Positions 47,773-49,946 of a DNA stretch of 64,000 nt are shown here, piece after piece. A program made the translations under genes and the position numbers. Within the stretch, counting starts at the first letter, position 1. Each line of letters starts with the position of its first letter. Under the pieces are notes generated by a model. The model searched no databases and was not told the origin of the DNA. It worked only from the letters and a program-made list of their open reading frames with translations. The stretch comes from Escherichia coli (lineage in GTDB: Bacteria > Pseudomonadota > Gammaproteobacteria > Enterobacterales > Enterobacteriaceae): NCBI RefSeq assembly GCF_003334765.1, contig NZ_QOWT01000005.1. One strand, given 5' to 3'.

Positions 47773-49122
47773 TTGGCGGGTTTTAACATCAAACATTGGT
47801 TTGCAGATGGCGCGTTTCGCACCATTATTCGCAATAGCGCCTGGTTAGGCTCCAGTAATGTCGTGAGCGCTTTACTGGGTCTGTTGGCGCTCTCGTGTGC
47901 CGGTAAAGGGATGACGCCCGCCATGTTTGGCGTACTGGTGATTGTACAATCGTACGCCAAGTCGATCAGCGATTTTATTAAGTTTCAGGCATGGCAGCTG
48001 GTGGTTCAGTACGGAACACCAGCATTAACCAACAATAATCCGCAGCAATTCCGCAATGTCGTCTCATTTTCCTTCTCGCTGGATATCGTCAGCGGCGCGG
48101 TGGCGATTGTCGGCGGCATTGCCTTACTCCCTTTTCTTTCCCATTCATTAGGTCTGGATGACCAAAGCTTTTGGCTGGCAGCGCTGTATTGCACGCTCAT
48201 TCCTTCAATGGCTTCCTCCACGCCGACCGGCATTCTGCGTGCGGTAGATCGCTTCGATCTAATTGCTGTACAGCAAGCGACGAAACCTTTTCTGCGCGCA
48301 GCGGGGAGCGTCGTAGCCTGGTATTTTGACTTTGGTTTTGCGGGTTTTGTTATTGCCTGGTACGTGTCGAATCTGGTTGGCGGCACCATGTACTGGTGGT
48401 TTGCCGCGCGCGAATTACGCCGCAGAAATATCCATAACGCCTTCAAATTGAATCTGTTTGAGTCTGCCCGACACATTAAAGGCGCGTGGAGTTTTGTCTG
48501 GTCAACCAACATTGCCCACTCCATCTGGTCGGCGCGTAACTCGTGCAGCACAGTGCTGGTGGGGATCGTGTTAGGACCCGCTGCCGCCGGGTTATTTAAA
48601 ATCGCCATGACATTCTTCGACGCCGCCGGAACGCCAGCGGGTTTACTGGGCAAAAGTTTTTACCCAGAGGTGATGCGTTTAGATCCGCGCACCACCAGAC
48701 CGTGGTTGTTAGGCGTGAAGTCAGGTTTACTGGCGGGCGGAATCGGTATTCTGGTGGCGCTCGCGGTGTTGATCGTCGGCAAGCCGCTTATTTCGCTGGT
48801 GTTTGGCGTTAAGTATCTCGAAGCGTATGACCTGATTCAGGTGATGCTGGGCGCAATTGTGATTTCGATGCTGGGCTTCCCACAGGAGTCATTGCTATTG
48901 ATGGCGGGAAAACAGCGCGCTTTTCTCGTGGCGCAAACCATCGCCTCAATCGGCTACATCGTATTGCTGTTCATGTTCTGTCATCTGTTTGGCGTGCTGG
49001 GAGCAGCGTTTGCTTATTTCGGTGGGCAATGTCTGGATGTGGTGCTCTCGTTAATTCCGACCTTAAAGGCATTTTTTCAGCGCCATTCCTTGCTTTATAA
49101 CGCAGCCGGAGAGAAATCCTGA
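47773..49122 (+). CDS. yghQ: MOP-superfamily (Wzx/MurJ-like) polytopic membrane flippase YghQ, full-length form
   Basis: 449 aa, highly hydrophobic with many predicted TM segments; stop overlaps the start of the next ORF (TGATG). Confidence 0.75.
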   Translation: MAGFNIKHWFADGAFRTIIRNSAWLGSSNVVSALLGLLALSCAGKGMTPAMFGVLVIVQSYAKSISDFIKFQAWQLVVQYGTPALTNNNPQQFRNVVSFSFSLDIVSGAVAIVGGIALLPFLSHSLGLDDQSFWLAALYCTLIPSMASSTPTGILRAVDRFDLIAVQQATKPFLRAAGSVVAWYFDFGFAGFVIAWYVSNLVGGTMYWWFAARELRRRNIHNAFKLNLFESARHIKGAWSFVWSTNIAHSIWSARNSCSTVLVGIVLGPAAAGLFKIAMTFFDAAGTPAGLLGKSFYPEVMRLDPRTTRPWLLGVKSGLLAGGIGILVALAVLIVGKPLISLVFGVKYLEAYDLIQVMLGAIVISMLGFPQESLLLMAGKQRAFLVAQTIASIGYIVLLFMFCHLFGVLGAAFAYFGGQCLDVVLSLIPTLKAFFQRHSLLYNAAGEKS

Positions 49123-49946
49123 TGATGAGAAAATATTTCCCGCTTGAGGCGAGCGAGCGTCTATTTGTTGCAGTTGAAGAAGATGATGTCGTTGATGCAC
49201 AGGTCAGTTTGCCGCCGACTATCGCACTAAGTTGTACCACCGAAATCATCCATGATAATTACGCGTTATGCCTGCAATTCTGGCTCAATGGCGTCAATCG
49301 CCAGGAGTTACTGCGTTTAATATGCAAACAGGCCAAAGGCGATGAGTTGACTGCTGATGAGCGCAAACAATTTAAATACATGCGAGCGCGCTACAAGCAC
49401 CTGCGTTTTGCGCAACGGCTGTATTTAAAGAAGCATCAGGCCGGATTTTTATTCGGCAAAACGACCGTTTTTTTGGGGCGTTTTCAGGACGGTTTTCGTA
49501 ACGGTAAGAAAAATATTGTGTCGTATTACGGCAACTTGTTACGGGTTTATTTAAGCTCTCCGGTCTGGTCGTTGGTGAACTATTCATTACGCCATAGCCA
49601 GTTAGAAAGCGTAAGCGGTTTTATTGCCTATCGGCAAAAGCAAATGCATACCCTGAAAGAGATAATTGCCAAACCGCGACTAACCGGCAGGGAATTTCAT
49701 GATGTGCGAAAAATCATCAGCCAGCAGGTTTCTTATTACGACACCTTAAGATCGCTTGATCCTGAAAATAAAGAGGCGTTACAGATTTCCCGCTTCCTCG
49801 CCGCCATTAATGGCCTGATGGGGGATAAACACGACGACATGGTGGCGGATGATATGGAAAACCGCCAGTCGTATGATGCACCGGTGGCGCTGGATAGCGA
49901 TATTCGCCAGCGCTTAGAGCTGCTGATTTCGCGTTTTCCGCTATAA
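49122..49946 (+). CDS. Hypothetical cytoplasmic protein (274 aa), function unknown, translationally coupled to yghQ
   Basis: ORF with ATG overlapping the yghQ stop; no motif I can recognise; basic, predicted soluble. Confidence 0.6.
   Translation: MMRKYFPLEASERLFVAVEEDDVVDAQVSLPPTIALSCTTEIIHDNYALCLQFWLNGVNRQELLRLICKQAKGDELTADERKQFKYMRARYKHLRFAQRLYLKKHQAGFLFGKTTVFLGRFQDGFRNGKKNIVSYYGNLLRVYLSSPVWSLVNYSLRHSQLESVSGFIAYRQKQMHTLKEIIAKPRLTGREFHDVRKIISQQVSYYDTLRSLDPENKEALQISRFLAAINGLMGDKHDDMVADDMENRQSYDAPVALDSDIRQRLELLISRFPL

Follow-up and report, generated by a model that had tools for sequence, protein, structure and literature searches.

A Putative, Highly Divergent CHAD-Fold Protein Encoded Beside the Flippase Gene yghQ in the Escherichia coli Sphingolipid Locus

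Introduction

What is the role of the 274-residue protein whose gene begins on the stop codon of the flippase gene yghQ in Escherichia coli? Bacterial sphingolipid synthesis and Lpt-like export have been worked out recently, mainly in Caulobacter, and of the genes in the E. coli sphingolipid locus, few are as tightly linked or as poorly understood as this open reading frame (ORF). It was studied here within the window, i.e., the whole analysed stretch of 64,000 nucleotides (contig NZ_QOWT01000005.1, RefSeq assembly GCF_003334765.1), in which it occupies positions 49122–49946 of the plus strand. RefSeq carries an identical gene labelled “hypothetical protein” (WP_000985005.1), which has probably remained without a name because it is absent from K-12, although roughly three in four complete E. 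coli genomes cover at least 80% of its length. In the literature on yghQ, on yghR/S/T, and on “CHAD domain” together with “sphingolipid”, nothing was found on its product. The assignment to the CHAD family proposed below provides a testable hypothesis, namely that a phosphate-rich ligand is bound on the cytoplasmic side of the flippase, and joins the unexplained kinases YghR/S/T and YghQ in one module; the family, for which polyphosphate (polyP) binding is the only role known to date, would thereby extend into membrane-lipid biology.

A Conserved Gene at the 3' End of yghQ

The coordinates and the length of 274 residues were found to be correct when the reading frames were re-read. The ATG start codon (49122–49124) shares one nucleotide, 49122, with the yghQ stop codon TGA (49120–49122), confirming the overlap described in the initial annotation; a Shine-Dalgarno-like site, GGAGAG (49108–49113), lies 8 nt 5' of the ATG, and 8 nt separate the stop codon from the start of the following ytfJ-like gene. 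The description of the product as soluble and basic is likewise borne out by a computed pI of 9.2, by 40 lysine and arginine against 33 aspartate and glutamate residues, and by a GRAVY of −0.38. Since no 19-residue window exceeds a computed hydrophobicity of 0.83, the all-alpha protein is predicted to be devoid of a transmembrane segment or signal peptide and to be cytoplasmic.

The frame at 49122–49946 is a real gene. It is under strong purifying selection, with a dN/dS of about 0.07 (0.06–0.07 against other Escherichia clades and 0.04–0.07 against Pseudocitrobacter), and at least 80% of its DNA length is covered in 4128 of 5426 complete E. coli genomes. The protein, once considered an orphan, has relatives (E ≤ 1e-3) that fall into 344 clusters when grouped at 90% identity and into 207 at 50%; full-length homologues of about 274–290 residues are found in many genera. 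Moreover, the frame is conserved intact elsewhere, the point on which the initial annotation had staked its claim: it is unbroken in 68 of the 69 loci with a flippase gene just upstream, the exception being a frame of 159 residues in a MAG (L075). The notion of a non-functional sequence, i.e., a chance ORF or a decaying remnant 3' of yghQ, could draw on the lack of a Pfam or NCBIfam match for the product, on a GC content below that of the neighbouring genes, and on the absence from K-12, but it is refuted almost beyond doubt by the low dN/dS, by full-length homologues spanning three proteobacterial classes, by a very confident AF2 fold, and by the nature of the K-12 gap, an IS5-associated deletion that took the entire downstream locus.

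The Sphingolipid Locus and Its Recurring Module

The protein was initially placed in a “lipid pathway”; the lipid context stands, but the term was too vague, as the gene lies among the spt/ceramide genes of the E. coli sphingolipid locus, together with genes for LptF2G2 paralogues and YghR/S/T-type kinases. The plus-strand operon begins with yghS (46224–46937), where a promoter-like site at 46146–46174 is a consensus match only, and continues with yghR (46969–47727), whose product is 44% identical to YghS. Both encode thymidylate-kinase-like P-loop kinases; YghR matches the NCBIfam dTMP kinase model at 4e-8, below the curated cut-off, and the kinase family profile (A3) matches PDB thymidylate kinases at about 1e-7. 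A third paralogue, yghT (45358–46050, minus strand), is divergently transcribed, and the nearest relatives of its product are thymidylate kinases, which phosphorylate a phosphate monoester; kinases of the YghR/S/T type resemble thymidylate kinase more closely than PPK2. Next in the operon, yghQ (47773–49122, plus strand) encodes a full-length MOP-superfamily flippase of 449 residues with weak NCBIfam MOP flippase matches; its orthologues match Pfam Polysacc_synt_3, and RefSeq names its product “lipopolysaccharide biosynthesis protein”.

Downstream of the ORF, the plus strand encodes a YtfJ-family protein (49955–50518; TIGR01626, 3e-64, above cut-off), which bears an N-terminal signal peptide and is therefore considered periplasmic, and whose gene is confined to enterobacterial forms of the locus. 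It is followed by paralogues of lptF (LptF2-type, 50549–51619; TIGR04407, 1.6e-95) and lptG (LptG2-type, 51616–52695; TIGR04408, 4.4e-91), the latter being the last gene of the operon. A terminator-like hairpin with a 16-bp stem, found by a consensus scan only, is located at 52693–52727 between the convergent lptG2 and spt; within the operon, the scan for promoters and terminators returned no more sites than chance. Based on the RefSeq annotation of the identical locus, the ceramide-backbone genes spt, acpR, a cerR-type epimerase/dehydratase gene, and aasR occupy 52730–56817 of the minus strand, and yghO (57188–58330, plus strand) is the orthologue of an N-acyltransferase assigned to dihydroceramide synthesis. 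The BL21 orthologues of the spt, acpR, cerR, and aasR genes have been characterised, and yghO corresponds to “aca”, ECD_02850 (PMC9386255).

The arrangement was surveyed among 122 relatives recovered in GTDB genomes by means of a 19-sequence family alignment, with the motif NGLMGDKHD, described below, as the search pattern; the loci of the best 80 of these relatives were compared, 75 of them having sufficient upstream sequence and 63 full flanks. A YghQ-type flippase gene stands immediately upstream in 64 of the 75, in an arrangement ranging from Enterobacterales to Sphingomonadales, which strongly supports the earlier proposal of an accessory factor of a lipid locus. Of the flippase/ORF junctions in 69 loci, 35 have a spacing of −4 nt, 12 of −1 nt, and 6 of 0 nt, the commonest form being an ATGA overlap. 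Within the 63 full-flank loci, a flippase gene lies at most 5 kb away in 60 and a YghRST-like kinase gene likewise in 46, and spt lies at most 10 kb from the ORF homologue in 37. Recurrent neighbours across the 80 loci include genes for the MOP flippase, thymidylate-kinase-like kinases, the spt cluster, and LptF2G2, and further those for a two-component system, an LpxO-like hydroxylase, and a GT1 glycosyltransferase.

The window and every enterobacterial locus with sufficient flanking sequence show linkage to spt, acpR, cerR, aasR, bCerS, and the Lpt paralogues; in Xanthomonadales, the spt cluster lies directly 5' of yghQ. In Sphingomonadales and Acetobacteraceae, the linkage is limited to a kinase–flippase–CHAD-like core; because the Sphingomonadales operon does not adjoin spt, a lipid substrate is an assumption there. 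In distant beta- and gammaproteobacterial MAGs and in Acetobacteraceae, the ORF homologue adjoins YghT/S/R-like kinase genes also where a flippase gene is not adjacent. Taken together, the ORF, YghQ, and YghR/S/T form a recurring gene module in sphingolipid-producing Proteobacteria.

Evidence for a Divergent CHAD Fold

Direct searches with the E. coli protein against Pfam, NCBIfam, PDB sequences, PHROGs, and PADLOC returned nothing significant, every Pfam and NCBIfam threshold being missed; phage and defence readings were dropped. For the CHAD family (PF05235) in particular, the E. coli protein gives no match at E ≤ 10, so that its assignment to the family is based on transitive and structural evidence. 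The fold had been described as unknown; however, remote homology search and structure prediction both yield a CHAD fold. The AF2 model (pLDDT 97.3) contains two four-helix bundles related by pseudo-twofold symmetry, with the CHAD protein 6qv5 as its best Foldseek match (probability 0.95), and the family HMM likewise finds 6qv5 as its best match in PDB (E 0.0035), with both halves in register. Among 88 family members, the Pfam CHAD model is matched by 3 at E ≤ 1e-3 and by 23 at E ≤ 0.1, the best value being 2.5e-5. The family profile found no match to the short CHAD of E. coli YgiF, and a 74-residue RcCHAD fragment used as the search seed for a canonical CHAD alignment returned two fragments and no more. 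The product is modelled as a very divergent CHAD domain from a distant branch of the superfamily. Its closest systems are RcCHAD (6QV5), CtCHAD (3E0S/6QV7), the Streptomyces phosin PptA (6RN5), and the C-terminal domain of E. coli YgiF (5A61), and its sequence identity to the solved CHADs is 9–17%.

The motifs that had escaped the initial annotation are present in both halves, each with a cationic helix of the type H-x2-R-x3-(K/R)-R-x-R followed by L-G-x3-D, with deviations, and the N and C halves align to each other through these motifs (hhalign, E 0.004). In half 1, the helix K85-x2-R88-x3-K92-x2-R95 (FKYMRARYKHLRFA; 49374–49406) aligns to the CHAD pattern H-x2-R-x3-R-R-L-R and to LHQMRVGVRRLRSA of RcCHAD, and positions 85, 88, 92, and 95 are lysine or arginine in 94–100% of the 88 members. 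The subsequent MGxLQD motif (G119, Q122, D123; 49476–49490), in which D123 is invariant and G119 at least 90% conserved, pairs with its half-2 counterpart in the N/C alignment. In half 2, F-H193-x2-R196-K197-x2-S200-Q201 (FHDVRKIISQ; 49698–49724) aligns to CHAD H-x2-R-x3-K-R and to AHRTRIATKRGRY of RcCHAD, H193 and R196 being invariant and K197 present in 97%; the motif N230-G-L-M-G-x2-H237-D238 (NGLMGDKHD; 49809–49835), at least 90% conserved in the family, aligns to CHAD “LGxxxD”. All the features are on the plus strand, and over the 88 sequences used for conservation counts the signature residues K85, R88, K92, R95, G119...D123, H193, R196, K197, and G234...H237-D238 are invariant or at least 90% conserved. 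Compared with the canonical signature, lysine replaces the half-1 histidine (position 85), and serine and glutamine (S200/Q201) replace the half-2 K/R pair in E. coli.

On two helices, conserved cationic residues recur with the spacing i, i+3, i+7, i+10, and the family is basic overall (median pI 9.3; pI above 8 in 72 of 88 members). In CtCHAD and SsCHAD, the H/R/R residues to which they align bind polyP, and mutation of these residues lowers the binding (PMC6537752). The phosphate-binding residues of CHAD are retained in the ORF product, which is predicted to bind anions. Signal peptides occur in about a fifth of the distant family members, so a strictly cytoplasmic, ATP-linked role cannot hold family-wide.

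Proposed Role and Alternative Readings

The reading preferred here, held at about even confidence, is that of a cytoplasmic CHAD-fold protein that would bind phosphate-rich anions or a phosphate-rich head group and serve the YghR/S/T–YghQ module. The protein, predicted to consist of two four-helix bundles related by an internal pseudo-repeat with the cationic H/K-x2-R-x3-K/R and (L/M)G-x3-D motifs kept, would be made in fixed proportion to YghQ because a ribosome terminating on yghQ would restart on the ORF. YghR/S/T may phosphorylate a ceramide-type lipid at the inner leaflet, giving it a head group that could be a pyro- or oligophosphate; a putative conserved basic groove of the CHAD-like protein would bind this head group and present it to YghQ, or otherwise couple the kinases to YghQ, and the protein may be in physical contact with the flippase or the kinases. 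YghQ would then flip the phosphorylated lipid, and in Enterobacterales the YtfJ-like protein and LptF2G2 would carry it towards the outer membrane. YghQ belongs to the same superfamily as Wzx and MurJ, the best-known MOP members, which flip lipid-pyrophosphate-linked precursors; such substrates are in line with a CHAD-like partner that recognises a phosphate-rich head group, although a cytoplasmic partner of this kind, coupled through translation, is not known for any Wzx or MurJ system. A bolder version, and a distinctly improbable one, supposes that E. coli and many other Proteobacteria with sphingolipids make an undescribed sphingolipid with a pyro- or oligophosphate-chain head group built stepwise by YghR/S/T, and that the CHAD protein, re-purposed from free polyP to this lipid-anchored chain, loads it onto the MOP flippase; if true, no earlier CHAD protein would have had a lipid as its ligand, and no Wzx/MurJ-type flippase a cytoplasmic substrate adaptor.

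Canonical CHAD proteins bind free polyP, and their genes lie near ppk, ppx, or TTM, whereas the present gene, in a sphingolipid locus, is accompanied by those for a MOP flippase and thymidylate-kinase-like kinases; among the conserved neighbours of the 80 loci, no link to polyP enzymes recurs, be it a TTM/CYTH fusion or a ppk/ppx operon. It is nevertheless conceivable, if unlikely, that the protein acts as a canonical polyP binder, bringing inorganic polyphosphate to the kinases or the flippase as a donor, regulator, or phosphate-status signal rather than recognising a lipid head group. This reading draws on the CHAD fold with its conserved polyP-contacting motif, on pitB, a phosphate transporter gene found next to the locus in Escherichia, Pseudocitrobacter, Hafnia, and Citrobacter, and on the binding of polyP by CHADs at nM to µM and their enhancement of YgiF polyphosphatase activity (PMC6537752).

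Following closely in plausibility, and also unlikely, is a flippase subunit without a phosphate ligand, i.e., a cytoplasmic helical bundle acting only as scaffold, plug, or chaperone to stabilise or gate YghQ, with the CHAD motifs kept for folding. The start/stop overlap conserved across orders suggests stoichiometric co-assembly, and the conserved histidine and aspartate residues could be structural; however, the residues conserved most are surface-type cationic ones on one helix face, as expected of a ligand site and not of a core. In addition, the relatives in Acetobacteraceae and several beta- and gammaproteobacterial MAGs have kinase neighbours and no adjacent YghQ-like gene, such genes being farther off and much more divergent where present, and an independent fusion joins two copies of the CHAD-like domain to a kinase (APH/choline-kinase-like), not to a transporter.

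Comparison with Caulobacter

An enzymatic role of the protein itself, such as that of a phosphotransferase, pyrophosphatase, or head-group transferase with H105, D123, H193, N230, H237, D238, and Y251 as candidate catalytic or metal-site residues, is very unlikely. Several histidine and aspartate residues are invariant in the family, in keeping with such a site, and the E. coli locus is devoid of homologues of Caulobacter head-group enzymes, such as the DAG-kinase-like CpgB, so some steps need other enzymes. A view of YghR/S/T as the counterpart of the ceramide kinase CpgB was dropped, as CpgB is a DAG-kinase-type enzyme.

The Caulobacter crescentus locus (ccna_01212–01226) comprises LptF2/LptG2/LptC2 and a candidate flippase, CC_1166; compared with it, the E. 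coli locus is without the Cpg head-group genes and LptC2, and has instead the three thymidylate-kinase-like kinases, the YtfJ-like periplasmic protein, and the CHAD-like protein. No ORF homologue from Caulobacter is found among the best 80 of the 122 genome matches, and no mention of a homologue of the CHAD-like protein was found in the literature on the Caulobacter sphingolipid locus. Both loci share spt, acpR, cerR, aasR, bCerS/yghO, the lptF2G2 paralogues, and a MOP-type flippase candidate. The lptF paralogues of sphingolipid loci are needed for sphingolipid export in Caulobacter, and the locus of E. coli UTI89 has been drawn as homologous to that of Caulobacter (bioRxiv 10.64898/2026.04.12.717747).

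The Reading Frame and Its Conservation

The open reading frame at 49122-49946 (+ strand) begins with an ATG and encodes 274 aa; its junction with the 449-aa yghQ, a flippase gene of the MOP superfamily, reads ...TCC TGA TG ATG..., in which the A of the ATG (49122-49124) doubles as the last base of the yghQ TGA stop, and a GGAGAG site lies 8 nt 5' of the start. The initial annotation had placed the frame, its length and the overlap exactly as they are found in the sequence. Its description of the product as soluble and basic likewise stands, as the protein has a pI of 9.2 (K+R 40 vs. 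D+E 33; GRAVY -0.38) and is computed to have no hydrophobic segment fit for a signal peptide or membrane helix. The identical sequence appears in RefSeq as the "hypothetical protein" WP_000985005.1, and among 5426 complete E. coli genomes, 4128 carry the DNA at a query coverage of at least 80%. In comparisons with other Escherichia lineages the dN/dS ratio comes to 0.06-0.07, and with Pseudocitrobacter to 0.04-0.07, similar to that of the neighboring genes. Full-length homologues (~274-290 aa, 60-76% identity) occur in Pseudocitrobacter, Hafnia, Serratia, Sodalis, Pantoea, and others, and when 1.84 billion cluster representatives are scanned exhaustively with HMMER, 207 clusters are recovered at E ≤ 1e-3 (141 at E ≤ 1e-10); the frame is therefore not the orphan it was first taken to be. 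It is a real gene, and the chance that no functional gene lies here is negligible.

The composition of the gene (GC 46.5%, GC3 52%) is lower in GC than that of its neighbors (~52%, GC3 56-60%). Between Escherichia lineages it has diverged more at synonymous sites than they have (dS 0.70 vs. 0.22-0.53), and in 512 genomes of the E. coli population it is only 90-95% identical; allelic diversity or recombination at this gene is possible.

A Divergent CHAD Domain

When the E. coli protein alone is used as a query, no match is found in Pfam, NCBIfam, or the PDB sequences. In an alignment of 88 family sequences, R88, D123, H193, and R196 are invariant, and K92, R95, H105, G119, K197, N230, M233, G234, H237, D238, and Y251 are at least 90% conserved. 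The N-terminal half carries the unit F-K-x2-R-A-x2-K-x-L-R-F-A ... M-G-x-L-Q-D, and the C-terminal half a resembling unit, F-H-x2-R-K-x2-S-R ... [quoted passage not shown] The best PDB match of the family HMM is the Ricinus CHAD 6qv5 (E 0.0035, both halves in register), with the CHAD entries 6qv7 and 3e0s also among the matches, and among the 88 members, 3 match Pfam CHAD at E ≤ 1e-3 and 23 do so at E ≤ 0.1. The two halves of the family align with each other motif to motif (E 0.004), which supports CHAD because that domain has internal symmetry. An AlphaFold2 model built from the alignment is of very high confidence (pLDDT 97.3, pTM 0.93) and all-helical, and its comparison with CHAD structures scores 13.2 for Ricinus CHAD (6qv5_A, 216 residues aligned), 11.8 for Chlorobium CHAD (3e0s_A), 10.8 for Streptomyces PptA (6rn5_A), and 8.4 for E. 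coli YgiF (5a61_A). Both the remote homology search and the structure prediction that the initial annotation proposed thus return CHAD in place of an unknown fold, and the protein is best placed on a remote branch of the CHAD superfamily, though the E. coli sequence falls below the Pfam threshold.

In solved CHAD domains, polyphosphate is contacted by residues of an H-x2-R-x3-R motif, and their mutation lowers binding (PMC6537752). The aligned positions K85/R88/K92(/R95) and H193/R196(/K197) are 94-100% conserved in this family, whose median pI is 9.3; in half 2 of the E. coli protein, the canonical CHAD K/R pair is lost. The fold is found with its cationic motifs intact, and the residues aligned with the polyphosphate contacts of solved CHAD domains mark a candidate ligand site. 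The UniRef entry of one orthologue is labelled "CHAD domain-containing protein" and a SEED label reads "TPR repeat protein, clustered with yghQ", so automated pipelines have already touched both the CHAD identity and the clustering with yghQ. What is new is a highly divergent variant of a known family in the context of the E. coli-type sphingolipid locus.

Flippase and Kinase Neighbors

Scanning one genome from each GTDB species with a sequence pattern yielded 122 relatives, of which 80 loci were compared with the proteins of the window by tblastn. A YghQ-like flippase gene lies directly upstream in 64 of the 75 loci with enough upstream sequence, giving good support to the earlier view of an accessory factor of a lipid locus. 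Among the 63 loci with 5 kb on both sides, the flippase gene lies within 5 kb in 60, a YghR/S/T-like kinase gene within 5 kb in 46, lptF2G2 (the lptF and lptG paralogues) within 5 kb in 28, and spt within 10 kb in 37. The flippase and CHAD-like genes overlap by -4 nt (ATGA) in 35 of 69 loci, with -1 in 12 and 0 in 6; such a conserved start/stop junction indicates that translational coupling is ancient and no accident of the E. coli sequence. The CHAD-like gene is thus coupled to a MOP flippase gene, and it is recurrently linked with thymidylate-kinase-like genes, inside or beside sphingolipid loci.

The loci belong to Enterobacterales, Xanthomonadales (Luteibacter, Rhodanobacter, Dyella), Sphingomonadales (Novosphingobium, Sphingobium, Sphingopyxis, Sphingomonas), Acetobacteraceae, and several beta/gamma MAGs. 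Sphingolipid production is well established in sphingomonads and acetic acid bacteria; in the other taxa spt is present in the locus, and in Sphingomonadales the operon is not beside it. The kinase genes yghT, yghS, and yghR (45358-47727) are paralogues encoding thymidylate-kinase-like P-loop kinases, 34-44% identical pairwise, and fall into three orthologous groups that are maintained across classes. Relative to thymidylate kinase, they have an inserted segment of ~40 residues (YghT residues ~40-80; pLDDT 60-68) in which G42, G46, P56, and G59 are conserved.

Other recurrent neighbors outside Enterobacterales, identified by eye from the sequences only (L041, L046, L048, L051, L076, L084, L087; L054-L066; L073, L085), include an LpxO-like Asp/Asn beta-hydroxylase-type gene beside the yghR-like gene, a histidine kinase with an OmpR-type regulator, which in Novosphingobium and relatives is transcribed away from the operon, a gene for a GT1 glycosyltransferase immediately 3' of the CHAD-like gene, and RND efflux pump genes. 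One contig, SZPQ01000026.1 (L004/L034), bears an alphaproteobacterial name, "Martelella alba BGMRC 2031", and an enterobacterial-type locus with 62-79% protein identity to E. coli and the gene order of Serratia; the organism name or contig assignment seems doubtful.

The Sphingolipid Locus and Its Partial Loss in K-12

The window carries the complete E. coli sphingolipid locus (45358-58330), in the order yghT (-); yghS, yghR, yghQ, the CHAD-like gene, a YtfJ-family periplasmic protein gene, and the lptF and lptG paralogues (+); spt, acyl carrier protein, CerR-type epimerase/dehydratase, and fatty acyl-AMP ligase (-); and yghO (+). From yghS to lptG2 the intergenic distances are -4 to 45 nt, a layout consistent with a seven-gene operon, and a hairpin with a 16-bp stem (10 G-C pairs) between the convergent lptG2 and spt (52693-52727) is likely a bidirectional terminator. 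Biochemical characterization exists for the orthologues of spt, acpR, and aasR in E. coli B; for dihydroceramide synthesis, the acyltransferase orthologue was taken to be yghO and the reductase orthologue the epimerase gene (PMC9386255). Sphingolipid export in Caulobacter needs the LptF2/LptG2 paralogues of sphingolipid loci, and the E. coli UTI89 locus has been depicted as homologous to that of Caulobacter (bioRxiv 10.64898/2026.04.12.717747); no mention of the CHAD-like gene was found in the papers examined.

K-12 MG1655 is without this gene. In its region 3124000-3137000, an IS5 element (insH9) follows a truncated yghQ (b2983) and abuts yghO, so the whole stretch from the yghQ 3' end to aasR is missing, and the K-12 "yghQ" is the remnant of a larger operon. 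Absence from K-12 is probably why the gene has no name.

The YtfJ-family protein (49955-50518; TIGR01626, 3e-64) has a signal peptide; its gene, placed after the CHAD-like gene and before lptF2, is confined to enterobacterial loci. The protein could serve as a periplasmic part of the Lpt2 route, which outside Caulobacter has no LptC2. The phosphate transporter gene pitB (43810-45309) adjoins yghT in the Escherichia, Pseudocitrobacter, Hafnia, and Citrobacter versions of the locus (the window and L009-L014, L021, L030, L067); this may be coincidence or be related to a phosphate-rich product.

Proposed Role

Three independent hints, none of them proof, suggest that phosphate-rich chemistry is involved: the CHAD fold, kinases from a family that phosphorylates phosphate monoesters, and a flippase superfamily that classically acts on lipid pyrophosphates. 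In the favored reading, the protein may be a cytoplasmic binder of phosphate-rich anions working with the kinases and the flippase, a proposal with about an even chance of being right. In its most plausible version, YghR/S/T would produce a lipid head group that is phosphorylated, perhaps as a pyro- or oligophosphate, and the protein would hold this group and hand it on to YghQ; in Enterobacterales, export via the YtfJ-like protein and LptF2G2 would come next. Points that weigh against the proposal are that none of the ppk, ppx, and TTM genes is recurrent in the loci examined, that the E. coli protein has lost the K/R pair of half 2, and that the Sphingomonadales operon stands apart from spt. 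An unnamed gene is thereby turned into a testable hypothesis on head-group chemistry and the flippase step in bacterial sphingolipid export.

A canonical binder of free polyphosphate, which the CHAD residues might suggest, is unlikely. Slightly less likely still is a scaffold that serves the flippase independently of phosphate; the CHAD-like gene of Acetobacteraceae and some MAGs adjoins YghT/S/R-like kinase genes with no flippase gene adjacent. An enzyme using the conserved His/Asp residues is improbable.

Family Variants

Signal peptides are present in about 19 of the 88 family members, each of them at ≤30% identity, so a cytoplasmic role cannot be assigned to the entire family, which includes a secreted or periplasmic branch. 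In a separate lineage, proteins of ~980 aa (P0251, P0253, P0268; L088 1082-4033) begin with a signal peptide and join a kinase domain of the APH/choline-kinase-like type (PF01636, 2e-8) to a pair of CHAD-like domains, a second, independent kinase association of this domain. Luteibacter has two tandem CHAD-like paralogues 3' of the flippase gene (L041 10001-11757; L048 9152-10816), and the metagenomic protein P0124, of 564 aa, is a fused tandem duplicate of the CHAD-like protein.
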